Assembly: GCA_016205975.1 (NCBI GenBank)
Contig: JACQSK010000007.1
Location: 5,328-69,327, forward strand
Direction of reading: 5' to 3'
Source: Candidatus Uhrbacteria bacterium
GTDB lineage: Bacteria; Patescibacteriota; Patescibacteriia; UBA9934; GWF2-40-263
DNA length: 64,000 nt
Every line of letters starts with the position of its first letter. The stretch's first letter is position 1. Both the position numbers and the translations under genes were made by a program. Positions 1,431 to 48,471 of the stretch are shown piece by piece. Below the pieces are notes generated by a model. That model saw only the letters and a list, made by a program, of their open reading frames with translations, did no database searches and was not told where the DNA came from.

Positions 1431-2153
1431 TCAGTCAGTCTGTGAGGCCGCGGAGATTTCGTGGACGATGCGCAGGGTGCGCGTCGTCTTTTCGTATTCC
1501 CATCGGACGATGTCGCAGCTGCCCCAGTGCATCCTCTCGACCGCCTGGATGACGACGAGCTGAAGACGTCCTTTCACCTGTCGAACGCGCACGAGGCCAC
1601 GCGCTTGTGTGGGCGCCCGCAGATACACGAGCAACGCGGGGTGTTTGCTCGCATGGCGCAAGATCATCCGATGCACGGTGCTGCGACTCGTCTTGAGTCT
1701 CTGGGCCGTGGCTCTGATCGACACCCCCTGGACGCGATGGAGGTAATAGGCGACAGAGTCTGGATCCGTCGGATCGTAGAAAACGTCCTTGGCACTGGGC
1801 GGCTTGTAGCGCTTGAGCGTGATCGTGTCTGCCCCTGCGCGCCATTCCACGACCGTCCCGTCCTTCCATCCGCAGCAGTTGAGCGCGCGAGCGCCCAGAA
1901 TGAGACGGACGCTGTTGGGCGGCAGTCGGTAGAGTTTGAGCCAGCCGCGCTCCACCTTGATGTTGTTGACAAGACGGTACCGGCGGACGGATTGGCGCAG
2001 AGCGTGGATCGTGAGGTAGCCGAGTTCGCGCGCCACGCGTCGTTCGTGCAAGCCTTCTCGCAGACGCCGGTCCGCCTGCGCGGCGCGTTCACGCACCGCT
2101 GTGCGGGACAATCGGCAGCCATGGATCGGTTCCATGTTCTCTCCCGTTCTCAC
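1431..2153 (-). CDS. HTH-domain protein, tandem paralog A (putative transcriptional regulator)
   Basis: 240-aa ORF with two helix-turn-helix-like segments (VARELGY..., VSIRATAQRLKTSRSTVHRMILRH) and a conserved CGWKDG block. Clear paralog of the adjacent ORF. Confidence 0.55.
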   Translation of the reverse strand: MRTGENMEPIHGCRLSRTAVRERAAQADRRLREGLHERRVARELGYLTIHALRQSVRRYRLVNNIKVERGWLKLYRLPPNSVRLILGARALNCCGWKDGTVVEWRAGADTITLKRYKPPSAKDVFYDPTDPDSVAYYLHRVQGVSIRATAQRLKTSRSTVHRMILRHASKHPALLVYLRAPTQARGLVRVRQVKGRLQLVVIQAVERMHWGSCDIVRWEYEKTTRTLRIVHEISAASQTD

Positions 2154-2854
2154 GGAGTTTCCTGAAGCTGTGCCGAGTGTTCCAGGTTCACGCGCAGCAC
2201 GCGCGCCTCCTCGTCATACTCCCACCGAACGATGTCGCCGCCTTTCCATTTCAACCGCTTGATCGGCGTTATGAGCGTGAGCGATAGGCTGACGCCGCCC
2301 TTATGCACCGAGACGATGCCGTCGTCTTCGATCGGGGAGCGCGTGAAGGCCGGGAGCTTTGGGTGCTTCATGGCGTGCCTGAGGGCCATACGCCGCGCCG
2401 CGCTGCGGGAGACGCCGAGTTCTGTCGCGACGTCCGTGAGAGTCTTGCCCATGACGCGGTGCAGGTAGTAGGCAACAGAATTCGGATCGTCGTCGCGCAC
2501 ATGCGCGTTTCTGCGGTTGAGTCGGACAGCTCGCAAGAGGATCGTCGCACCTTTGATACGCCAGTGGATGCCCTGGCCGTCTTTCCAACCGCACCGTCTG
2601 AGCGGACGGGTCGTCAGTAAGAGGAAGGATGTGCCGTTCTTGCGCAGAGGGAGTTTGAGCCACCCCTTGTCACGCCGGTATCCATGGCGCTTGCGATGAT
2701 ACTGGACGGACGCCAGTAAGGCCTTCACAGACACATAGCCGAGTTCCTTGATGACCCGGCGCTGCGACACGCCGTCGAGCAGCATCTGCGAGGCTTGCGC
2801 GGCGCGTTCGCGTTGCTTGGCGCGCGGGAGCCGGCGGGCGTTGATGGGATCCAT
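2150..2854 (-). CDS. HTH-domain protein, tandem paralog B (putative transcriptional regulator)
   Basis: 234-aa ORF sharing HTH segments (KTLTDVATELGVSRSAARRMALRH), CGWKDG, DPNSVAYYLHRV and IVRWEY with paralog A. Its stop overlaps the start of paralog A by 4 nt. Confidence 0.55.
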   Translation of the reverse strand: MDPINARRLPRAKQRERAAQASQMLLDGVSQRRVIKELGYVSVKALLASVQYHRKRHGYRRDKGWLKLPLRKNGTSFLLLTTRPLRRCGWKDGQGIHWRIKGATILLRAVRLNRRNAHVRDDDPNSVAYYLHRVMGKTLTDVATELGVSRSAARRMALRHAMKHPKLPAFTRSPIEDDGIVSVHKGGVSLSLTLITPIKRLKWKGGDIVRWEYDEEARVLRVNLEHSAQLQETP

Positions 2855-2944
2855 GGAACCTCCATTGCGGTTATAGCGAAAAGGAGCCGGGTGGTCAAGG
2901 GATTTGAAAAGCGCGCCTCTTGGGGAAGCGCGCCGTGAGTCTGG

Positions 2945-3742
2945 TCAGGCCGCGGTGGCCTTCTTCTGGTACGCGTCGGTGCCAGGCCAGCCGAGCTCCT
3001 CGAGCGCCAGGACGCTCCGCGCCCAGGACGAGCGCACCCAGATGTGCTCGCTCATCGTGGGAACCTCTCGACCCACGTAGAGGTCGAGGCGGTCGAGCTC
3101 GAGGCCACGCAGCTCCTCGGGTCGGTCCTGCCTCTGGAGGTGGTTCACCGCGACGAGTCGCTCGTTGTTGGTCACCAGGCAGAACATGATCTCACCCTCA
3201 TGCAGGCACTGGTACTTGTCCCAGACCTGCTGAGGCGTGAGGTTCACCATTTTGGCGATGGTGGCGAGACGACACCAGCGGCGGCGCGTGCTGCGCCCGG
3301 TCGTCTCCTTGACCATGTAGGGCGTGCGACCCACGAGGCGTTCGAGAACGCCGTTCTTGATCTGGCGGGCGCCCTGGAAGAGGCTCGTGTCGGGCCACTC
3401 GTCGTAGCCATCCGTCATGCCGGAGATCGTCATGAGACCGAAGGGCTTGGTCGCCCAGCGGACGAAGATGGTCGGGTTGTGCTGGTCGCCCTGGACGGCC
3501 GTGAGGAGGTGGATCTCGTTGCCCGCCTCGCGGATGGCCTGCCGGCGCTCGAACGAGTACGGCTCGGGGTTGCCGTCCTCGTCGTAGGCGTGCGACTGAC
3601 GGTGGGGCACGGGCCAGATGTAGGTGATCAGCGCCCAGGCTCCCTCGGGGACCTCCTCGCACGCGAGCGTGGTGTCCTCGTAGATCGGCTCACGCTCGTC
3701 TTCGTAGGTGCCGCTGTGCCGGCTGATCTTGATGCGGAGCAT
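2945..3742 (-). CDS. hypothetical protein (GC3-rich ORFan)
   Basis: ORF 2945..3781 trimmed to Met14 (MLRIKISRHSGTYE...). Balanced amino-acid composition, unlike the antisense ORF 3044..3793. No family recognised. Confidence 0.5.
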   Translation of the reverse strand: MLRIKISRHSGTYEDEREPIYEDTTLACEEVPEGAWALITYIWPVPHRQSHAYDEDGNPEPYSFERRQAIREAGNEIHLLTAVQGDQHNPTIFVRWATKPFGLMTISGMTDGYDEWPDTSLFQGARQIKNGVLERLVGRTPYMVKETTGRSTRRRWCRLATIAKMVNLTPQQVWDKYQCLHEGEIMFCLVTNNERLVAVNHLQRQDRPEELRGLELDRLDLYVGREVPTMSEHIWVRSSWARSVLALEELGWPGTDAYQKKATAA

Positions 3743-3831
3743 CGTTCCTCCTTGTCCCGAGTGCCCATGTTGGGCTCTCATTCAATGGACTAAGCGAGGA
3801 TAGTCGAAAATCCTCCAACTGTCAACCTTGG

Positions 3832-3864
3832 GTATCAAAAATCAGCCAGTTTTGACTGGCTGAC
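3832..3864 (-). terminator. intrinsic terminator downstream of dcd
   Basis: Perfect palindrome tcagccagt-tttg-actggctga (3843..3864) followed on the minus strand by a U-run (plus-strand atcaaaaat). Confidence 0.5.
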
Positions 3865-3869
3865 GTTTG

Positions 3870-3985
3870 ACTCTGTGTGTCATCCCGAACAACGTGAGGG
3901 ATCCCATGACGAATCATTCGAACGAAAAATGGGATCCTTCCTCCTCGATGACTCGTCGTCAGGATGACACAGAGGATGACACTCG
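3870..3985. repeat. nested imperfect inverted-repeat element (~115 bp) in the leader of the ORFan gene
   Basis: Outer arms ctctgtgtgtcatcc / ggatgacacagag (second arm duplicated), inner arms gagggatcccat / atgggatccttc, central palindrome cgaatcattcg. Confidence 0.5.
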
Positions 3986-3997
3986 CAATGAGTTCAT

Positions 3998-4687
3998 TTA
4001 TAAACTGAATTGATTCTTGATCTCATCAAGCTTACCCTCGACGAGCATCTGCCGTTCGTCGTCTTTGTCGAGCTTGAACCCCTGTGAGCCGGCCTGCTGT
4101 GAGCCTGTCGAACCCATCGAACCAGATTCCGTATACTTGGCCGCCGTCATGCCGTGAAGGTTGGCTTCTTCTGGCGTGAGCGGCCGATTCAGTTCTTGGA
4201 AGATCACCTGGCACACGCGCTCACCTGGATACAGACGGATCACTTGGTCGCCGGCTTCGTTTTTCATGGGGAATATGAGATGACCCTTGTAGCCCGTATC
4301 GATGATGCCCGAGAGCGATAGGTCAATGCCGCGGCGGTTGGTCGAAGTACGCGGGAACAAGACGGCCATGAGGTGCAGCGCGTTCAACTCGATGCGTTCC
4401 AGGCTCGTGCCGATCACAAACTCGTTTGGGAGCAGTTCAAAGTATTGCCCGGGCTGAAGCTGGACTTCATCGAATTGCTCGCGATGCGCGTCCACATCGT
4501 CAATGGCGACCTTGATAGCGCGTCGGCCTTTCTCATCAACCGTCCAGTTGCGCGGGATCAGGAACTTGTATCCAAGGCGCAGGTCAATGGCGTGCGGTTG
4601 GATTTGGAACTGGTCGAGCGCGGGGGTGAATCGGAGGGCGCTTGTGGTGATGGCGGAGAGGATTTCTGGGCGTGTGAGGATGGACAT
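3998..4687 (-). CDS. dcd: dCTP deaminase / dUTPase-family protein with ~45-aa C-terminal extension
   Basis: IDLRLG ... SGIIDTGYKGHLIFPMKNEAGDQVIRLYPGERVCQVIF pattern of the Dcd/Dut family, plus an extra Ser/Gly/Lys-rich tail. Confidence 0.8.
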   Translation of the reverse strand: MSILTRPEILSAITTSALRFTPALDQFQIQPHAIDLRLGYKFLIPRNWTVDEKGRRAIKVAIDDVDAHREQFDEVQLQPGQYFELLPNEFVIGTSLERIELNALHLMAVLFPRTSTNRRGIDLSLSGIIDTGYKGHLIFPMKNEAGDQVIRLYPGERVCQVIFQELNRPLTPEEANLHGMTAAKYTESGSMGSTGSQQAGSQGFKLDKDDERQMLVEGKLDEIKNQFSL

Positions 4688-6930: not shown

Positions 6931-7092
6931 CGTTGGTCTAGGCCATGCGCCTGCGGGCGGCCTCGAGCTTCTGGCGGCGAGCGAGCTCGCTCCACTGGTC
7001 GGCGAGCCACTCGACGAACTTCGTCACCGTGCGCCACAGGGCCATCTTGTGGATGTGTCCGTCGGTGTAGCGCTTCTTGCCTTCCACCTCGA

Positions 7093-8445
7093 TCACCTCG
7101 GGGTGGGCGACGTGGAGCTTCGCCTTGTACTCGAGCAGGAGGCGGCCCCAGTGTGTGCGGTCGCTCTGCCGGTTGAACTGGTCCGCGAGCAGATACAGCG
7201 CCTGCCTCGCGTCCGGGTGCCAGTTGGCGGGCTGGCCTGCACGGCGGCGGGGGAACTCCCATCCTCCATGACGGCTACGCCACAGAACATCTTGAGCTTG
7301 GCCTGGGTGGCCTTGCGCGCGCGGTGCCGGAGCTTGGAGCGCTCCTCATGGCACGCGACGGCACGCTCGAGCAGGGCGGCCTGCTCCGGTCGCCTGTTCT
7401 TCGCGCACCAGGAGGCGACGCGTTGCAGGGTCTGGAACTCGCTGTTCCCCAGCTGGACGAAGCGCTTGAGTTCCTGGAACCTCGCCTCGCGCTCCAGCCG
7501 GGTGGACTCCTCGTAGAGGCTGTCCATCCGCGCCTGGTTGGGTTCGACCATGAACCGCTCGATCCCGCCGATCGCGGAGATGAGCCTTCCCGCGAGCGCG
7601 GGGCCGATGCCCGAGACATCCTCCAAGATGTGCTGCCACACCTGGGTGTTCTTCACGGCGCGGTCGAGCTCCTTGAACCGCGCGGCCTCCTCTTCCTGGA
7701 GCGCCAGGTAGATGCGGTCGTTGGCCTTGAACTCGTTGAACGCGCGTTCGATGTCGAGCTCGGCGAAGTCCTGCTCGGCGCACAGCACCTGGCCCACGAG
7801 GGCTCGGTGCAGGCGCTGTTCGCAGGCGATACGACCCTTCATGGCGTCGATGCGCAGAGCCTGGCACTCGCGCACCCAGATGATGCGCCGTGTGTTCACC
7901 GTCACCTCGTGGAAGAGGCTGGGCTTGTCGCGCGCGAGCTGCGCCAACAGCTTGGCGTCCTCGTCCTTCTCGCCGTGGCGTTCCCGCTTGAGCTCGAAGG
8001 GCGGAAGGCGCAGGACCTTGGCACTCACGCGCTCACCCTGCTTGGACAGGGCGAAGGCGAGCCGGTCTCCCGAGCCGCCGAGCGACATCCCGACGACGTC
8101 ACCGCGCTGGAGGCCGTCGAAGGTGATGGGAACCTTGGTGGCGACCTGGGTCTTGCCGTCCTGCTCGCGCAGGTGCACCTGGTTGAGCTTCTCGACGTCC
8201 TCGGTCTTCTTCACCGTACGCCACTTCACGTGACGTGGGTTGAAGTCTGCGAGGCTGTCTTCGGGCGCGATGTCACGCCAGGCGATGGGGAAGCGACCGC
8301 GCACCCAGTCGAGCTCGGCGTTGTCGTCCTCCAGCTCGTAGGTGTCCTCACGCCCGCCGTCGATGACGGTCATCTGGGTGGGACGCGCTTCTCCTTCCTT
8401 GGTCTTCTTGACCCGGTGTCGGACACCGATGAACCTCTTGTTCAC
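7093..8445 (-). CDS. IS110-family-like transposase/recombinase (RuvC/DEDD-like segment plus helix-hairpin-helix), divergent
   Basis: VVGMSLGGSGDRLAFAL resembles a RuvC/YqgF/DEDD N-terminal motif. LEDVSGIGPALAGRLISAIGGIERF closely resembles the HhH of IS110 Transposase_20 (LxxIPGIGxxTAxxLLAEIGDxxRF). The canonical Ser motif is not recognisable. The last ~60 aa are low-complexity, so a frameshift is possible. Sits in a GC-rich block between secE and gyrB. Confidence 0.4.
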   Translation of the reverse strand: MNKRFIGVRHRVKKTKEGEARPTQMTVIDGGREDTYELEDDNAELDWVRGRFPIAWRDIAPEDSLADFNPRHVKWRTVKKTEDVEKLNQVHLREQDGKTQVATKVPITFDGLQRGDVVGMSLGGSGDRLAFALSKQGERVSAKVLRLPPFELKRERHGEKDEDAKLLAQLARDKPSLFHEVTVNTRRIIWVRECQALRIDAMKGRIACEQRLHRALVGQVLCAEQDFAELDIERAFNEFKANDRIYLALQEEEAARFKELDRAVKNTQVWQHILEDVSGIGPALAGRLISAIGGIERFMVEPNQARMDSLYEESTRLEREARFQELKRFVQLGNSEFQTLQRVASWCAKNRRPEQAALLERAVACHEERSKLRHRARKATQAKLKMFCGVAVMEDGSSPAAVQASPPTGTRTRGRRCICSRTSSTGRATAHTGAASCSSTRRSSTSPTPR

Positions 8446-41684: not shown

Positions 41685-42290
41685 ATGAAACGTTTCGCTT
41701 TTGCGCTCGCGGGCGCGCTCATGCTCTTGGGAGCAGGCTGTTCCCAGCCGGCTCAGGAGGCATCTGAAATCACCTTTACCTATCCCGACACTGTGGCAGA
41801 AGAAACACCAGAGGTCCTCTGGACATTCCCAGGAACGCTTCCTGATGAGCAGATCGCTGGGAAACAAATCCGCATCACGACCGAGAAAGGCGACATCGTG
41901 TTTGAATTGTTTGAGGACACGGCCCCTATGACCGTTTCTAACTTCGTGTACCTGACCACCGGCGGTTATTACGATGGTCTCGCCTTCCATCGCCGTGAGG
42001 AAGGGTTCGTGATTCAAGGCGGGGATCCCAACGGGGATGGCACAGGCGGGCCTGGATATGATTTTGCCGATGAGCTCGACGATGCGTATGCGTATGAACG
42101 CGGGATCGTCGCGATGGCCAACCGCGGCCCGGACACGAACGGCTCCCAGTTTTTCATCATGCTGGACGACACGCCGCTGCCTAAGGCCTACACGATTTTT
42201 GGCCGCGTGACAGAGGGCCTGGACGTGGTCGATGAGATCGTCGTGGGAGACGTGATGGGGCGCGTGACGGTAGAAGATCGACAGCCATAA
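41685..42290 (+). CDS. ppiB: cyclophilin-type peptidyl-prolyl cis-trans isomerase lipoprotein
   Basis: Lipobox LLGAGCS. Cyclophilin motifs FHRREEGFVIQGGDP and GSQFFI. Confidence 0.85.
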   Translation: MKRFAFALAGALMLLGAGCSQPAQEASEITFTYPDTVAEETPEVLWTFPGTLPDEQIAGKQIRITTEKGDIVFELFEDTAPMTVSNFVYLTTGGYYDGLAFHRREEGFVIQGGDPNGDGTGGPGYDFADELDDAYAYERGIVAMANRGPDTNGSQFFIMLDDTPLPKAYTIFGRVTEGLDVVDEIVVGDVMGRVTVEDRQP

Positions 42291-42291
42291 T

Positions 42292-43419
42292 ATGTTCACG
42301 CAACGCAGGGTCGAGATTCTCGTCCCTGCGTTTTTAGTTTGTCTGGTCGCTGTGCCATTTGTGGCGGGGTGGGTGGTTTCTGGGAGAGCTCTTACGGAAT
42401 CGGATAGGACGTATTTGACCGATAGGACCTATGAAGAGGACCGTTCGTCGGACCACACGCCTCTGCCAGAGGAAGTCCGCGGTCTGTATTGGACGGCCGC
42501 CACGGCCCTGTCCTCGCGCGCGGACGAGCTGCTTGCGTACATGAAGGCGTCCGGTCTCAACACGGTCGTGATCGACGCTAAGTACGACAATGGTGTCGTG
42601 GCGGCATTTCCGTCGTCCTTGTTCACGACCCTCTACGACGCAGGCATCTACCGCATCGCGCGCGTTGCGGTCATGCGTGACGGCGCGTTTGCGCTCGCCC
42701 ATCCCGAGGTCGCCCTGCGCACGGCCTCGGGCGCGCTCTGGCAAGACAAGGTCGGCTCGCTCTGGGTGGATCCAGCCGCGCCCGACGTGACACAGGAGGC
42801 CATCGCGCTCGGCCGCGCGCTCTACGCCGCGGGGTTCGACGAGATCCAGTATGACTATGTGCGTTTCGCCTCCGACGGCGAGGTGCGTGCGATCGTGTAT
42901 CCGATCTGGGACGGCACAACGTCCAAGGCCGAAGTCATGCAGCGTTTCTTCAGGACGGTGGGCGGCGCGCTTGGGGTAGACGGCATTCCGGTTTCGTTCG
43001 ATCTTTTCGGCATGACGTTCTGGTCTTTGGGTGACTTCAATATCGGCCAGCGCCTGGTTGACGTGCTGCCGTATGCCGACTGGGTGTCACCTATGGTGTA
43101 TCCGTCGCATTATCCAGACGGCTTCAAGGGATACGAGAATCCGGCTGAGGCGCCCTATCAGATCGTGAAGCAGTCGCTCGATGAGGGCTTGCGGCTGATG
43201 CACGGCGTGTATGCCGGCTCGGATGAAGCACTCGCCTCGCACTTCCGTCCCTGGCTGCAAGATTTCGATATCGGCGCCGTGTACACGAGCGACTACATCG
43301 AAGCACAAATCGCCGCCGCCCGCGACACCGGCGCTTCCGGCTGGCTCTTGTGGAACGCGCGCAACGTGTACGAGGCGGCGGATTACAGAGAAAGTCGCGT
43401 CAGTTCCGAGACTTTTTGA
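42292..43419 (+). CDS. putative glycoside hydrolase (DUF4015/GHL10-like TIM barrel)
   Basis: N-terminal TM helix plus the NTVVIDAKYDNG ... GFDEIQYDYVRF pattern of the putative glycosyl hydrolase family. Assigned from memory. Confidence 0.55.
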   Translation: MFTQRRVEILVPAFLVCLVAVPFVAGWVVSGRALTESDRTYLTDRTYEEDRSSDHTPLPEEVRGLYWTAATALSSRADELLAYMKASGLNTVVIDAKYDNGVVAAFPSSLFTTLYDAGIYRIARVAVMRDGAFALAHPEVALRTASGALWQDKVGSLWVDPAAPDVTQEAIALGRALYAAGFDEIQYDYVRFASDGEVRAIVYPIWDGTTSKAEVMQRFFRTVGGALGVDGIPVSFDLFGMTFWSLGDFNIGQRLVDVLPYADWVSPMVYPSHYPDGFKGYENPAEAPYQIVKQSLDEGLRLMHGVYAGSDEALASHFRPWLQDFDIGAVYTSDYIEAQIAAARDTGASGWLLWNARNVYEAADYRESRVSSETF

Positions 43420-43448
43420 AAAGGACTCACACCCACGTGCCTTCTCCT

Positions 43449-43525
43449 CTCATAGGCGGCAGCCACTGCTGCCGCGTTCGAGTGCGCGTACGCTTCGGAA
43501 GCGGGAGCAGTGGCTCCCGCCTCTC
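43449..43525. repeat. ~75-bp structured intergenic repeat, copy 1
   Basis: ATAGGCGGCAGCCACTGCTGCCGCGTTCGAGTGCGCGTACGCTTCGGAAGCGGGAGCAGTGGCTCCC. Two hairpins (gcggcagc/gctgccgc and cgggag/ctcccg) whose loop-proximal halves are mutually complementary. ~90% identical to copy 2. Confidence 0.6.
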
Positions 43526-43528
43526 ATG

Positions 43529-43563
43529 AATTAAAAATAAAAGCGGCCGGGGAGTCCAGCCGC
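43529..43563 (-). terminator. intrinsic terminator downstream of the 482-aa gene
   Basis: On the minus strand, hairpin gcggctggactccccggccgc followed by ttttatttttaatt. Confidence 0.55.
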
Positions 43564-43593
43564 GCGTTGAACACGTTTTTGTTTCAGTCCTCT

Positions 43594-45042
43594 CTACCCG
43601 AGGTAGGACCGGCACTCGGTGATCATCCGGCCCGTGCGCGCGTACCAGCGCAGGAGGGAGCCTTCCAGACGCAACCGGTAGATCGCGTGGCTGCCCTTGC
43701 CCAGTGAGGACGACGTCGGGTCACTGGTGAACACGCCCCAACAGCGGGGATGATCGAAGCCGCTCGCCACGGCATACACGTGCTTGCCGTGGGTCACGAC
43801 CTGGCGGAGGTCGAACACGCATCCTGCTGCGCCTTCGATTTCACTCCAGGTGAACGACCCGTTCTCCTCTCGACGTCCGACCACGAGGAGTTGGCCGCCG
43901 CCCATCAGAGAGACCGAGGCGCGGAAGCCGTCTTGCATGAGGAGGAAGTCGTTGATGTGCGTTGCCAGGACGTGCTGCCAGCGCACACGCGTGTCACCCA
44001 AGTCGTCGTATTCCAGGATCTGGAGGTTCGTGGTCGTGTCCTTGCAGATGAGGAACGAGCCGATCTCCTTCACGGGAGTCGTGGGGAGCTTGAAGGACAG
44101 TTGGCTACTGTCTGGCAGGACGACCAGGGTGCGATCGCCGCACCGCGTGCGGACGCTCCCATTGCCCGTGAGGACCGGATCCCCGCTGACCTCGCCCAAG
44201 TCCTCCCAGGCACTTGCGTGCAGGGGGAGCTTCAGGAGCTTCCCGTCGACGCGAGCGAACACCGAGCCGTTCCACGTGATGACCGGCGCGGAGATGGACG
44301 CGGCCTGGAGCTCCTGGTCATTGTTCACGATCAGCCAGCGTCCCTCGCCACGGGAGATGACCACCGCGATGATGACGTGACCGAAGTCTTCGGCCGTGTA
44401 CCCGTGCACGGCGGCCTGGACGCGACAGTCGGGCTCCCACCAGGGGATGGACAGCTCCTCCCAATCGGTCGTGACGTGAGGCCTGGCATCGAGGCAGCGG
44501 ATCAATCCGCTGCCGCTCCACACGCACAGCGTGTTGCCCGTGAGGACGGCACCGATCGGATCGGAGAATCGACGTGACCAAGGGTAATCGTAACCCTCAC
44601 TCAGGATCGATTGATCGAGGTGCCAGATGAACGGATCGCGAGAGAGGATGGTTCTCTCAAGTGCATATCCGTCCGTGTCGAACACCTGTCCCTCGTTGGT
44701 CGTGACCAGAGGGACTCCATCGACGCAGGAGAACGCGCCTCCCACGACTCGATCCGCCTTCTGCTCCCACGGGTTGAGTCCAGTCCACACGTGGCCGTCC
44801 TTGGTGAGGCCCGCGCAGACATCCTCTCCGCGCTTGTTCATGACGCACACGGTCGTGAGGTCGAGGCTCTTGGGCAGAAGGTTGCCCCACTGCGTCTCGA
44901 ACACCTCGCCCGGCGTGAGCATCCGGAAAGGATCCTCCATGAACCGTTCCAGCAGTTCGACGGGGAGAGTACCCTCCTCGATCGCCTCCCAGACTTCCCT
45001 GCCTACACCGGCCAGACGCCGTGCTTCCTTGGTGAGTACCAT
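43594..45042 (-). CDS. hypothetical repeat-rich (beta-propeller-like?) protein, GC3-rich ORFan
   Basis: 482 aa, strong GC3 bias, recurring Gly/Trp-containing blocks. No family recognised. Confidence 0.5.
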   Translation of the reverse strand: MVLTKEARRLAGVGREVWEAIEEGTLPVELLERFMEDPFRMLTPGEVFETQWGNLLPKSLDLTTVCVMNKRGEDVCAGLTKDGHVWTGLNPWEQKADRVVGGAFSCVDGVPLVTTNEGQVFDTDGYALERTILSRDPFIWHLDQSILSEGYDYPWSRRFSDPIGAVLTGNTLCVWSGSGLIRCLDARPHVTTDWEELSIPWWEPDCRVQAAVHGYTAEDFGHVIIAVVISRGEGRWLIVNNDQELQAASISAPVITWNGSVFARVDGKLLKLPLHASAWEDLGEVSGDPVLTGNGSVRTRCGDRTLVVLPDSSQLSFKLPTTPVKEIGSFLICKDTTTNLQILEYDDLGDTRVRWQHVLATHINDFLLMQDGFRASVSLMGGGQLLVVGRREENGSFTWSEIEGAAGCVFDLRQVVTHGKHVYAVASGFDHPRCWGVFTSDPTSSSLGKGSHAIYRLRLEGSLLRWYARTGRMITECRSYLG

Positions 45043-45182
45043 TGCTTCTCCTGTTCACCACTGTGTCAGGCGGTATGCCTGACAGCTTCGGGTGAACCTG
45101 GGCTTGTGCCCAGTGGATGGAGCCTAACAGATATTGTTTGTATTGAAAAGGGCTTACGTCCCATGTCCTTCCTATACCGTCC

Positions 45183-45260
45183 GTATAGGCGGCAGCCCCT
45201 GCTGCCGCGTTTGGATGCGCGTCCGCATCGGAAGCGGGAGCAGTGGCTCCCTCGGCCGTG
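45183..45260. repeat. ~75-bp structured intergenic repeat, copy 2
   Basis: ATAGGCGGCAGCCCCTGCTGCCGCGTTTGGATGCGCGTCCGCATCGGAAGCGGGAGCAGTGGCTCCC, a direct repeat of copy 1 on the other side of the 482-aa gene. Confidence 0.6.
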
Positions 45261-45298
45261 CCCGTCCTACGGGCGAGGCGGGCGAGGCCCGCCTATGA

Positions 45299-45333
45299 AT
45301 AAAAAACCCACCGTCGCTAAAGCTTCGGTGGGC
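45299..45333 (-). terminator. intrinsic terminator downstream of the 204-aa gene
   Basis: On the minus strand, hairpin cccaccg-aagctttagcga-cggtggg followed by tttttt. Near-identical copy at 46205..46238. Confidence 0.6.
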
Positions 45334-45354
45334 GCGTCAGGCAGTATGGATTCT

Positions 45355-45969
45355 TCAGGCCACGAGCCTGAAGTCGTTGTATCCACTCCCGCCGTCGAAG
45401 CACAGGGAGTGGAACCCATCCGGCGCGTACGAGTCGCGAGTGTTCTGGAGGTACCGCGCCGCGATGCGCTGAAGCGCCGGAAGACGTTCGTGCGGTACGA
45501 GTCGGTTCATGTCCTCGACGAACAACGCGACCTCATCCTGATCCCACCCGATGAACGACAGGAGCGACACGAACGCGTACTCGGGTCGGTACACATTCGC
45601 TCCGTAGCGATAGCCGTACTTGGTCAGCACCCCGTCGCGCTTCGCGAACTGGCGCCCTTCCGGCCAGCGGCGGATGTAGGTCATGAAGCCGTAGTACTCC
45701 ATGGCCCACAGGTAGCTGTGGACGCTGAAGTTCGCGTCGATGTCACCCGTCTTCATGGGGTCCATGTGGTTGTACGCGCGGATTCCGAGCCGCCACATGA
45801 GGTGGTACGGAGTAACCGCCTGCGGCGTGTCGAGCACCCCGTCACGGATGACCGATGCCACCGTGACCGTCGGCGATGCGGTGGTGCGCTCGATCACGGC
45901 CTCGGAAAGGTTGGGACAGGTCGGCTGGGCGTGACGCACGCCGAGCTTCTTTTTGAAGGCAGAGTCCAT
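45355..45969 (-). CDS. hypothetical protein (GC3-rich ORFan)
   Basis: Start set at Met119 (MDSAFKKK...) of ORF 45355..46323, preceded by an AAGGAAG RBS. Aromatic-rich. No family recognised. Confidence 0.5.
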   Translation of the reverse strand: MDSAFKKKLGVRHAQPTCPNLSEAVIERTTASPTVTVASVIRDGVLDTPQAVTPYHLMWRLGIRAYNHMDPMKTGDIDANFSVHSYLWAMEYYGFMTYIRRWPEGRQFAKRDGVLTKYGYRYGANVYRPEYAFVSLLSFIGWDQDEVALFVEDMNRLVPHERLPALQRIAARYLQNTRDSYAPDGFHSLCFDGGSGYNDFRLVA

Positions 45970-46204
45970 TGTTCTTCCTTCCCCGCGTCGCGCGGGGCGT
46001 TGGTGGTGTTGGTCGCGAACCTGTTGTCTCGCCGTTTTTGTGAACGGCGCGAAATCGTTTGGAAGAATAGAAACGATTCCGATCCCATAGATATCTTCAC
46101 CTGCTCTTTGAATTCGTTGAATCCCAAGAAAACAGCATGCAAGATAACGGCTCACTCTAGCCGTTTTTTGTGATTTTGTCAAACGTCTATGAATGAAAAA
46201 ACCC

Positions 46205-46238
46205 ACCGTCGCTAAAGCTGAGGTGGGCGTGGCCTGAC
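46205..46238 (-). terminator. intrinsic terminator downstream of the 138-aa gene (repeat of 45299..45333)
   Basis: ATGAATGAAAAAACCCACCGTCGCTAAAGCTGAGGTGGG, the same hairpin-plus-T-run module. Confidence 0.55.
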
Positions 46239-46247
46239 CGGTGAGGG

Positions 46248-46661
46248 TCAAGCAGATTCGGCGTCGATGACTCGCAGGGTTGCCTTGCCCGTGATCTGGC
46301 ACAGGAGCTCCCAGGTCTGGCACGCGTTATCGGGGCACGAGTAGATGGTCGTGTCGGTCTTGGCGCCTTGCGTTTGCACCGCGACGGGTTTGCCGCAGTG
46401 CGTGCAATTGAAGTGGCCGCGGGCGTTCCGACGCCGACGGTTCCACTCCAGCCACCAGGCCGTGAGCTCGAGCGTCGCCTGTGCGTCATCGGGCGCGCCC
46501 GTAAGATCCGCCCCCAAAGGGAGCTCATGCAGGCCCCGAGCAACGATCCACGAGAGGATCGGCAGGAGGCTCTCACGCAATGGCTCTGGCAGCTCATCGG
46601 GCAGGAGCGTGTGATGGAGCTCACCCACGAGATGCGTCCAGTCGATGCCGTCGGGGTCCAT
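46248..46661 (-). CDS. hypothetical protein with C-terminal zinc-ribbon
   Basis: Start set at Met22 of ORF 46248..46724. C-terminal CTHCGKP ... CPDNAC pair. Confidence 0.45.
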   Translation of the reverse strand: MDPDGIDWTHLVGELHHTLLPDELPEPLRESLLPILSWIVARGLHELPLGADLTGAPDDAQATLELTAWWLEWNRRRRNARGHFNCTHCGKPVAVQTQGAKTDTTIYSCPDNACQTWELLCQITGKATLRVIDAESA

Positions 46662-46747
46662 CTGGATCACGAGGGAAAAAGAGGGTTGAGGGGCGCGGTC
46701 AGACAAGGAACTCCTCCAAGACAAGAGACCTCTGCTATAATAGCACC

Positions 46748-48148
46748 ATGCATCCCGCTATTACAGAGAAGACCTTTTACCAATACCTCAAGTGCCCCAA
46801 CTGGGTGTATTTAGATTTACACGCGTTTGAACCCAGACCGCACGAAGCACTTCTCTCTCGTCTGCAAGACGACGGCCTGCTGCCGGAGAAAGAACGCGAG
46901 CTGCTCACCGACCGTCAGGACACAGCCGAGGTGACGGCCGAGGACCCGGACGAGGCTTTCACTCAGACGCTCGCTTTCATGCGCGAGGGGCGCCACACCA
47001 TTTATCACGGCGTCCTCGTCGACAAGCACTGGGTGGGACATCCGGACATCTTGGAGCGCGTGGAGGGCCAGTCGCGCCTGGGGCATTATTATTATGTGGC
47101 GGCGGATTTGAAGCGCACGCGGTTCGTGCGCGACGATCATAAGTTCCAGGGTTGTTTTTACGCTGAGCTTCTCGAGCGCGTGCAGGGCGTGAAGCCGGTG
47201 CAAGGCTATGTCATGACGCCGGACAGGGAAGTCATCCCGTATCTCATTGAGGAGTTTGAAGCCCAGTACGAGATCACGCTCACCGAGATTGAAAAAATCG
47301 TCGCCGGCAAACGGCCCGCGCATTTTGTGACCTCTGGCTGCAAGCAGTCACCATGGTTTGCTGAGTGTCGCAGCGAGTCGGAAGCGTGCGACGACCTCTC
47401 GCTCTTGAACCGCGTGTGGCGCGAGGAAGTGCATCGGCTTGAGGAGGCTGGCGTCACGACCATCGGCGCGCTCGCGCTCAGGAGCGTGCCAGACCTTGAA
47501 CGGCTGTGCCCGGAGGTGAGCTCCACGCGTTTGGAAATTATGCGCGACCAGGCGATCGCCATCAAAGAAGGCCGTCACCTCATTCGGGGGCACGTGCAGA
47601 TGCCGGAAGCGCGCGTGGAATTATTTTTCGACATTGAGAGCGACCCGCTGCGCGACTTTGATTATCTCCTGGGTGTCCTGGAGGTGACGAGCCATGGCGA
47701 GCAGTACCATTCCTTTTTTGCCGCCGCGCCGGAGCAAGAGGCGCAGATGTGGAAAGAGTTCGTGGCGTTCATCGAGGGTCATATGGACGCGCCCATCTAT
47801 CACTATGGCTGGTTTGAGCGCGAGGTGGTGGAGCGGTTTGCCGCCCGCTACGGCATTTCCGAAATCGCGCGCCAGGCGCTGCAGGAGAATATGCTCGACC
47901 TGCTCGATCTCATCCGGCCCGCCGTGATTTTTCCGCTCTCGTTTTATTCGCTTAAAGACTTGGGCGCCTACATCGGGTTCCAGTGGAGGAGCGAGGACGC
48001 CTCGGGCGCCAACTCGGTCCTGTGGTTTGAGGAGTGGCTCAAAAAGAAAACCCCCAAGCTCCTGCAGAAGATCCTTGAGTATAATGAAGATGACGTGCGC
48101 GCCACGCATCGCCTGCAGCGGTGGGTGAGGGAACACGCCAGTTTATGA
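46748..48148 (+). CDS. RecB-family nuclease, TM0106/COG2251-like (PD-(D/E)xK plus RNase-H-like domain)
   Basis: N-terminal FYQYLKCPNWVYL Cys motif, PD-(D/E)xK-like GHPDIL ... YVAADLKR, C-terminal YHYGWFE ... EYNEDDVRATHRL. Start set at Met57 of ORF 46580..48148. Confidence 0.6.
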   Translation: MHPAITEKTFYQYLKCPNWVYLDLHAFEPRPHEALLSRLQDDGLLPEKERELLTDRQDTAEVTAEDPDEAFTQTLAFMREGRHTIYHGVLVDKHWVGHPDILERVEGQSRLGHYYYVAADLKRTRFVRDDHKFQGCFYAELLERVQGVKPVQGYVMTPDREVIPYLIEEFEAQYEITLTEIEKIVAGKRPAHFVTSGCKQSPWFAECRSESEACDDLSLLNRVWREEVHRLEEAGVTTIGALALRSVPDLERLCPEVSSTRLEIMRDQAIAIKEGRHLIRGHVQMPEARVELFFDIESDPLRDFDYLLGVLEVTSHGEQYHSFFAAAPEQEAQMWKEFVAFIEGHMDAPIYHYGWFEREVVERFAARYGISEIARQALQENMLDLLDLIRPAVIFPLSFYSLKDLGAYIGFQWRSEDASGANSVLWFEEWLKKKTPKLLQKILEYNEDDVRATHRLQRWVREHASL

Positions 48149-48471
48149 AATCGCCGCGCCTCATCCTCCTGCTTGCAGCCCTCGTGGTCATCGGGGCCGT
48201 CCTCGTGAACGTCGCGAGTAACTCCGACGACAGAGCGTCTTCGGTTCGTCCAGACGCGCCTCAGGGTGACGGCGCGCGCGCGGTCCTCACGGAGAGTTCC
48301 TGTACAACCGCGGGCGGTATCTGGAACGCCTGCGGTTCTGCCTGCCGCACCACGCCCGACGCGCCGTGTATCGAGGTGTGCGTGGAGTACTGTCAGTGCG
48401 CTTCAGATACGCAATGTCCTACCGGCCTTACCTGCGGCGACTTCGTTGACGGAGTCGGCGTCTGCCTATGA
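48145..48471 (+). CDS. small secreted Cys-rich protein
   Basis: 108 aa; signal peptide then a mature region with 12 Cys (CTTAGGIWNACGSACRTTPDAPCIEVCVEYCQCASDTQCPTGLTCGDF). Start overlaps the nuclease stop by 4 nt. Confidence 0.5.
   Translation: MKSPRLILLLAALVVIGAVLVNVASNSDDRASSVRPDAPQGDGARAVLTESSCTTAGGIWNACGSACRTTPDAPCIEVCVEYCQCASDTQCPTGLTCGDFVDGVGVCL

Follow-up and report, generated by a model that had tools for sequence, protein, structure and literature searches.

Three consecutive minus-strand genes, each followed by a hairpin and a run of T, raise the question of whether they were captured as cassettes and what part the repeats around them played in their arrival. They lie in a 64-kb stretch of DNA (the window) from a Candidatus Uhrbacteria bacterium, a groundwater member of the Candidate Phyla Radiation (CPR, Patescibacteria), between a DUF4015 gene and a gene for a RecB-like nuclease, and are here named A, B and C in order of position. 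Our analysis points, with moderate confidence, to a variable accessory-gene slot between DUF4015 and RecB-like flanks in a clonal groundwater Uhrbacteria, in which copies of an intergenic spacer bracket the added genes B and A. The site is best read as a small hotspot for insertions, accompanied by duplication of the spacer, that holds two inserted units (A and B) and one resident gene (C), and the apparent cassette modules would then be local segmental duplications bracketing two inserted transcription units. The locus appears to be a case of ordinary genome plasticity together with an undescribed small hairpin motif, rather than an integron or an active repeat-element family. The three minus-strand open reading frames (ORFs) reported by the initial annotation (43594..45042, 45355..45969 and 46248..46661) are present, and its term cassette-like is a fair description, since A and B each end up between direct repeats. 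The island was also found on Logan contigs of several runs (SRR12113385 to SRR12113433) that are 100% identical to the window over 42000-48200, which indicates a clonal population. The genes of the locus are as follows.

42292..43419, plus strand: DUF4015 gene, putative glycosyl hydrolase (Pfam PF13200, E 5.9e-71); its stop codon lies within the right-hand repeat (TTGAAAAGG)
43594..45042, minus strand: gene A, 482 aa, accessory; N-terminal helical segment and beta-propeller-like body
45355..45969, minus strand: gene B, 204 aa, apparently inserted accessory gene; GC content at third codon positions (GC3) 0.86
45970..46182, minus strand: predicted promoter of B and structured leader of ~180 nt; TTGACA-17-TAGAGT at 46182-46154, 10/12 in the promoter scan
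46248..46706, minus strand: gene C, 152 aa, zinc ribbon; CxxC...CxxxxC and AWWLEW motif
46748..48148, plus strand: RecB-like gene, TM0106-type RecB/Cas4-like nuclease with an RNase_H_2 domain (Pfam PF13482, E 6.7e-36)

The evidence for a variable slot comes from relatives whose RecB-like gene is 76-83% identical to that of the window. Flanks are conserved among them and the content differs, as in an insertion hotspot, and the DUF4015 gene is syntenic in L242 and L245. The slot is occupied as listed below.

L242 (RecB-like gene 80% identical): empty, with a 143-nt gap from DUF4015 to the RecB-like gene
L245 (RecB-like gene 76% identical): C only
L243 (RecB-like gene 79% identical): C and a gene for 251 aa
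P0016 contig (RecB-like gene 80% identical): genes for 84 aa, ThiF and 474 aa; no DUF4015
L249 (RecB-like gene 83% identical): C; the contig ends 336 nt beyond C

Since the relatives carry nothing, C alone or other genes, the slot is a variable insertion site, and from this comparison A and B appear to be additions to it. The three genes on the P0016 contig (84 aa, ThiF-like and 474 aa, at 1998-4359) are all on the minus strand and look like a defence or accessory operon.

Gene C behaves differently from A and B. When C and the RecB-like protein were used as one query, the best 120 matches listed were all RecB-like (the RecB-like protein has 340 homologues, mostly from Uhrbacteria), and the homologues of C were found by synteny. 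These are divergent from the RecB-like gene: the one in L249, the closest relative, has 58% identity (E 1.5e-56) with the same position and orientation, those in L243/L244 and L245 have 31-34% (E 1e-21 to 1e-24), and all carry the CxxC...CxxxxC zinc ribbon and AWWLEW. C thus appears to be a conserved divergent partner of the RecB-like gene, a vertically kept resident and not an insertion. Its start is most likely the TTG at 46706, giving 152 aa, because of a GGAGG ribosome-binding site and an N-terminus conserved in the homologues. C and the RecB-like gene are 41 nt apart (46706-46749), and a common palindromic GCTATAATAGC at 46737-46742 could serve as -10 box in both directions, in which case the RecB-like mRNA would be nearly leaderless.

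These comparisons also modify how the three genes were first characterised. Strong GC3 bias is real with respect to the flanks (0.82 for A, 0.86 for B and 0.80 for C, vs 0.74-0.75 for the DUF4015 and RecB-like genes) and is not unique in the window, where NusG has 0.80 and other genes have 0.85-0.90; as C is resident according to its syntenic homologues, a raised GC3 cannot be relied on in this locus as evidence of acquisition. The label ORFan is partly true, A having six distant homologues, B one, and C positional homologues in relatives. The proposal of an acquired island holds for A and B, given the empty slot in L242 and a homologue of B next to a recombinase-bearing island, and fails for C, which is syntenic and vertically inherited.

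For gene B a single homologue cluster (P0003, 60% identity) was detected among 5.8 billion proteins. In that other genome the homologue adjoins a tRNA-Ser gene and an island that encodes a large serine recombinase together with helicases, an SNF2 protein and a methyltransferase, and its GC3 is 0.84 vs 0.46-0.68 for most neighbours. DNA similarity between the window and the locus of the homologue (L007) begins exactly at the -35 box of B and runs to the start codon; the promoter and leader (L007 4473-4685) are better conserved than the protein, mean column identity being 81% for the whole DNA alignment vs 60% for the protein. With its sole homologue in another context, homology starting at the -35 box and high GC3 in both hosts, B appears to be a mobile unit. 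A sequence search of the PDB gave no match for B, and its structure model is unusable (predicted local distance difference test, pLDDT, 35). The consensus fold of the leader has 50 pairs, with 2 compensatory changes, 6 one-sided changes and 0 broken pairs, and a UUCUUCC stretch can pair with the ribosome-binding GGAAGGAAG. The leader is a candidate for a new cis-regulatory RNA, in which this stretch can mask the site of ribosome binding. The compensatory changes sit in two stems; two distinct sequences of the leader are known, and it has no Rfam match. A phage origin found no support: searches of the phage collection gave no similarity in DNA or protein, and viral contigs gave no match for B or its leader; the alignment of A was too divergent for a pattern scan.

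Gene A (NCBI locus HY631_01475) had no match in Pfam, PADLOC, PHROGs or NCBIfam, and a word-indexed search found the protein itself only. An exhaustive HMMER search revealed six full-length homologues with 31-36% identity. Two of them occur in a conserved NDK-x-A-MurA-rpsL/rpsG/fusA context, in four contigs, and another one has a gene of comparable length (507 aa) as its tandem neighbour. As homologues keep the NDK-x-A-MurA context elsewhere, A seems to have been relocated to the slot. The AlphaFold2 model (pLDDT 74.6) has a helical N-terminal segment and an all-beta body, for which Foldseek returned the BamB and DDB1 propellers and a PDB profile search returned designed propellers (E 8e-11). 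A is accordingly described as beta-propeller-like, a predicted assignment to fold class only.

The intergenic spacers connect these additions with the repeats. A 67-nt direct repeat (43452-43518 and 45185-45251, 91% identical) brackets gene A, and a 34-nt terminator repeat (45301-45334 and 46196-46229, 94% identical) follows genes B and C. Both occur in just these copies in 64 kb, a count reached by 0/100 shuffles. With indels allowed, the homology around the 67-nt repeat reaches about 43412-43534 and 45140-45300 (103/121 aligned bases identical). The parts of the spacers are listed below, those with a strand in the orientation of transcription.

43412..43534: spacer copy gamma, DUF4015-proximal half; tail TTGAAAAGG..., two inverted hairpin units, then CTCATGAAT
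43535..43563, minus strand: terminator of A (T2), GCGGCTGGACTCCCCGGCCGC then TTTTATTTTT; 8 pairs in the terminator scan, 7 of them G-C
45140..45354: spacer copy beta, between B and A; apparently composite, with ~36 extra nt that hold a third weak hairpin unit at 45272-45298
45301..45334, minus strand: terminator T1' after B, CCCACCG...CGGTGGG then TTTTTT; 94% copy of the post-C terminator; -18.5 kcal/mol, z -2.6
46184..46259: spacer copy alpha, C-proximal half; hairpin over the C stop codon (GCTTGACCCTCACCGGTCAGGC), terminator T1 at 46196-46229, then CATTCATAGACG

Read on the minus strand from 45354 to 45140, the B-A spacer begins with a match to the post-C spacer (55/60 identical) and continues with a match to the spacer from the A terminator to the DUF4015 stop (103/121). 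The two parts meet at ATTCATAG, with ATTCAT as the shared junction, and after C nothing of the 67-nt element is present except the junction ATTCATAGACG. The alignment indicates that the B-A spacer is a composite copy of the post-C and pre-DUF4015 spacers joined at ATTCATAG. All three would be partial or complete copies of one ancestral spacer between C and DUF4015: C is followed by the C-proximal half, B and A are separated by the full copy, and the DUF4015-proximal half lies before DUF4015. Such a spacer consists of a terminator (hairpin plus T-run), the ATTCATAG junction, a pair of inverted GC-rich palindromic hairpins of 24-28 nt each and a short tail. Since the copy before DUF4015 holds the DUF4015 stop codon (TTGAAAAGG), that copy is native; and since the flanks were duplicated along with the hairpins, a segment was copied rather than an element transposed.

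Genes A, B and C are all followed by a hairpin and T-run that qualify as an intrinsic terminator. Those of B and C are near-identical, fold at -18.5 and -16.3 kcal/mol and are each followed by TTTTTT; that of A is a different hairpin. The hairpin over the stop codon of C shares homology with the terminator that follows the B homologue in L007. Thus, the near-identical module that the initial annotation placed behind every gene is correct for the succession of hairpin, T-run and ATTCAT, which is found after all three, and incorrect for the terminators, of which only those of B and C are near-identical. Likewise, its repeats of ~75 bp and ~90% identity around the 482-aa gene exist, at 67 nt and 91%, with the element following A and B only and not C.

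The hairpin inside the 67-nt repeat has the form ATAG plus GCGGSAGC-CNCT-GCTSCCGC, a unit of 24-28 nt with an 8-bp GC-rich stem that is always intergenic. Copies in the window are doublets, and they are the only doublets among the copies found. The units next to DUF4015 are the following.

43452..43475, plus strand: hairpin unit c1L, ATAG plus GCGGCAGC-CACT-GCTGCCGC; covariance model R1, 47.9 bits
43501..43524, minus strand: hairpin unit c1R, AGAG plus GCGGGAGC-CACT-GCTCCCGC; R1, 47.0 bits; inverted partner of c1L, co-oriented with A

Model R1 also matched spacer beta at 45183-45214 (plus strand, 45.5 bits), 45228-45257 (minus strand, 33.8 bits) and 45272-45298 (14.9 bits). Over the window and 19 related loci (264 kb total) it found, beyond the copies already retrieved by pattern, no further one save this weak third unit. 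The arms of the doublet are 28 nt long, 86% complementary and 13 nt apart. Alternative folds, which had been proposed for the repeat, are indeed predicted: the first copy (plus strand) folds as one long hairpin (-55.1 kcal/mol, z -7.2), whereas for the second copy (minus strand) separate local hairpins are favoured. Between c1L and c1R a C-G pair is exchanged for G-C, which keeps each local stem and puts C.C and G.G mismatches into the long hairpin. The sole variable stem pair is complementary in 9/9 units (G-C in 6, C-G in 3). ATAG is conserved in 7/9 units and is positioned like the GTAG/GTGG of repetitive extragenic palindromes (REPs), with a sequence that is not canonical. c1L lies 33 nt past the DUF4015 stop and is co-oriented with DUF4015, motif and orientation being those of single copies in other Patescibacteria, and c1R follows the A terminator in the orientation of A; this is expected for two convergent 3' regions.

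A scan of the genome collection with the permissive pattern GGCGGSAGCCNCTGCTSCCGC listed mostly single matches in unrelated GC-rich genomes, which were taken for chance. Among the matches listed, the motif with its ATAG prefix was present in three contigs, two of Uhrbacteria and one of Patescibacteria (L041, L127 and L104). A stricter scan of the metagenome collection gave three matches, all on Hainich groundwater contigs, one of them the same sequence as L104. This makes five distinct single-copy loci elsewhere, all intergenic and co-oriented with the flanking genes, in hosts of 41% to 55% GC: after trxB, gyrB and rpoD, and before ybeY and cysS. Within these loci, from other groundwater Patescibacteria and next to housekeeping genes, ATAGGCGGSAGCC-N-CTGCTSCCGC is conserved near base for base (L041 3926-3957, L127 2989-3020, L246 11389-11420, L247 1529-1560 and L248 9340-9371). 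The hairpin had no match in viral contigs and none in Rfam; for the window as a whole nothing reached the Rfam gathering score, and matches within the island were noise only (E up to 5). The hairpin is probably a low-copy, sequence-constrained stem-loop of Uhrbacteria/Patescibacteria that acts in transcripts. From its position and orientation we infer a role in RNA, where it would act as a 3'-end, processing or insulating stem-loop.

Taken together, C would be the resident neighbour of the nuclease gene, downstream of which B and A were added as self-contained transcription units. B would have brought its own sigma-70-type promoter, structured leader and terminator, and A its own terminator. 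Every insertion would have come with a duplication of the spacer, leaving each added gene with a terminator at its 3' end and direct repeats on either side. As the route we infer short-homology recombination of incoming circular or concatemeric DNA at the hairpin-rich spacer. One junction would be marked by the octamer CTGCCTGA, common to the native 3' end of C and the 3' untranslated region (UTR) of the B unit: CTGCCTGA is present in the 3' UTR of B in L007 as well as in the window, and C in L249 natively ends in GAATCTGCCTGA. In the window the C stop is directly followed by CCCTCACCGGTCAGGC, a match to the B-homologue terminator of L007 in its loop and 3' arm. This sharing points to joining at an 8-nt microhomology and suggests a B element that was circularly permuted or of more than unit length.

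Several points weigh against this interpretation. An empty or intermediate allele (without A or B) was not seen, all population contigs being 100% identical, and the promoter scan found no consensus promoter for A. The sequence is compatible with more than one order and mechanism of insertion: a single insertion of a composite B-spacer-A segment fits equally well, and so does a concatemer of more than unit length with terminal redundancy. Either terminator, that behind C or that behind B, could be the native copy. The RNA role of the hairpin rests on its orientation in five loci, which were found by exact pattern, so that diverged or differently placed copies were not sampled. Bracketing repeats of a similar kind were looked for in the slots of relatives and none were found there.

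Among other explanations, the one that survives best is that the modules are ordinary terminators or stabilising stem-loops under selection, whose similarity arose by local gene conversion and has no tie to the arrival of genes. A hairpin and T-run do stand 3' of every gene, and elsewhere single hairpins occur in 3' UTRs or intercistronic sites of housekeeping genes. However, the copy between B and A contains parts without a plausible role in such a setting, namely a plus-strand unit antisense to both genes and a tail resembling the DUF4015 stop, and no other site in the 64 kb of this genome carries the repeats. We consider this explanation unlikely, though it is the most credible of the alternatives. 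The initial annotation would have been refuted by repeats that are ordinary lineage-wide terminators behind many core genes, together with conservation of the three genes as core genes in relatives. In the DNA searched the hairpin is not widespread as a terminator, and neither A nor B belongs to the core genes.

Somewhat less probable still is a REP/REPIN-like mobile element moved by a Y1 transposase of the REP-associated tyrosine transposase (RAYT) type, which would have transposed to both sides of A or would promote capture. REP elements and REPIN doublets are repetitive, imperfect extragenic palindromes of 20-40 nt that are mobilised by RAYT transposases, reach tens to hundreds of dispersed copies in a genome and carry a GTAG/GTGG tetranucleotide. 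The window doublet does resemble them in its conserved 5' tetranucleotide (ATAG, compare GTAG of REPs) before a GC-rich palindrome, in two inverted units ~20 nt apart that make one long hairpin, and in a sequence that is near-invariant across genomes of 41-58% GC. Yet homology of the copies spreads well beyond the element into both flanks, as in a duplicated segment; there is a single cluster in 64 kb and no more copies in about 200 kb of related loci; other genomes gave single hairpins, not doublets; and no Y1 transposase was found among the scanned window ORFs. Such an element is possible only if the rest of the genome has many copies and a RAYT gene. A literature search for REP elements in CPR bacteria returned an incidental mention only. 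Miniature inverted-repeat transposable elements (MITEs), which have terminal inverted repeats, a target-site duplication and several copies in unrelated flanks, do not fit: inverted ends AGGCGG/CCGCCT are present, but the flanks of the two copies are homologous and the searched DNA gave no other copies. The proposal of a REP/MITE-like family that mediates insertion is thus not supported, in view of the duplicated flanks and the lack of extra copies in the searched DNA.

A more speculative idea, to which we assign very little probability, is that CPR bacteria may possess an unrecognised way of capturing cassettes without an integrase, with the ATAG hairpins and the common ATTCATAG junction as its recombination sites. 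By analogy with integrons or IS200/IS605-type chemistry, such a mechanism would be hairpin- or single-strand-directed and, if true, would lead to a stack of promoter-gene-terminator units behind a resident gene. Least probable of all, by a slight difference, is an integron-like array of cassettes that end in an attC-like site and were taken up by site-specific recombination: the genes are co-oriented with a structured element 3' of each, direct repeats surround each inserted gene and the junction motif ATTCATAG is common to all three boundaries, but the check for attC sites that had been suggested found, on both strands of 43301-46800, no RYYYAAC ... GTTRRRY core pair with a spacing of 40-130 nt, neither a tyrosine recombinase or integrase nor a Y1 transposase was found in the scanned ORFs of the 64 kb (an integrase-less cluster is still conceivable), B has its own promoter that is conserved with its homologue, the arms of the element, in contrast to those of attC, each form a perfect hairpin on their own, and the terminator part of the modules after B and C is unrelated to that after A.

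Elsewhere in the window a gene at 6940-8445 (minus strand, GC3 0.88) matches the NCBIfam family 'TIGR-Tas system RNA-guided endonuclease' (E 9.7e-15, below cut-off) and 'IS110 RNA-guided transposase' (E 1.5e-10), as well as an IS110-type protein in the PDB. Its frame appears to shift near 7240-7290, and the second frame continues protein-like to 6940. Directly upstream, beside gyrB, are repeats at 8623-8974 in a register of 105-106 nt with GTCGARAGAYG every ~53 nt, which Tandem Repeats Finder left undetected. A stem-loop-type guide array is a possible interpretation of these repeats; such arrays have been described for CPR genomes (PMC12045711). Downstream of C in L249 (1-336), TCGAAAGACGA-like strings recall the repeat units at 8623-8974, with 11-mer matches only that are not significant. 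A link between the island and the Tas/IS110-like array at 8.6 kb was considered and rejected, as they share ten 10-mers vs 2-8 in other window chunks of equal size, and none of the ten lies at a junction of the island. Furthermore, two adjacent minus-strand genes at 1431-2153 and 2150-2854 encode proteins of 234-240 aa with similar N-termini, each with a weak helix-turn-helix match, and are followed at 2945-3781 (minus strand) by a 278-aa gene of GC3 0.90 without a family match. Together, the genes at 1431-3781 may form a further patch of accessory genes.

CPR bacteria have tiny genomes, and to our knowledge the gain of accessory genes in them is poorly documented. The variable slot between DUF4015 and the RecB-like gene is a clean, base-resolved example, with two foreign or relocated units behind a resident gene, a spacer duplication and an 8-nt microhomology at one junction. 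None of these results overturns current understanding. Two by-products of the analysis, a sequence-conserved ATAG hairpin of Patescibacteria intergenic regions without an Rfam family and a conserved, apparently structured B leader able to mask a ribosome-binding site, may prove more useful than the island itself.

Compared with known systems, the locus shares single traits with several of them. As in intrinsic (Rho-independent) terminators, a T-run comes behind each of the hairpins that follow A, B and C, whereas the ATAG units lack a T-run and are conserved in sequence across genera, which terminators are not. Integron cassettes are mostly promoterless ORFs with an attC site, an imperfect palindrome of 57-141 bp flanked by R'' (RYYYAAC) and R' (GTTRRRY) cores, and an IntI tyrosine recombinase adjoins their array; CALINs are clusters of attC sites without an integrase. 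The island is similar to integron cassettes and CALINs in its co-oriented genes, each followed by a structured imperfect palindrome, and in the repeats on either side; it differs in having neither R''/R' cores nor an integrase, at least one gene with its own promoter, and arms that are self-complementary hairpins. With REP elements and REPINs the window hairpin has in common a short GC-rich extragenic palindrome after a conserved tetranucleotide, an inverted pair that makes a long hairpin, and a location between convergent genes or in 3' UTRs. In contrast to them it is of very low copy number where measured, carries ATAG instead of GTAG/GTGG, has no RAYT in the window and gave single units only in other genomes, and its copies share flanks. 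Phage-style morons are promoter-gene-terminator units, and it is to insertion hotspots and morons that the slot is compared last: the flanks are conserved, the content differs from relative to relative, and B forms a full promoter-leader-gene-terminator unit. The slot departs from these in its very small size (0-3 genes), in having no recombinase or tRNA gene at the site, and in the 60-120-nt spacer duplications that bracket its insertions.

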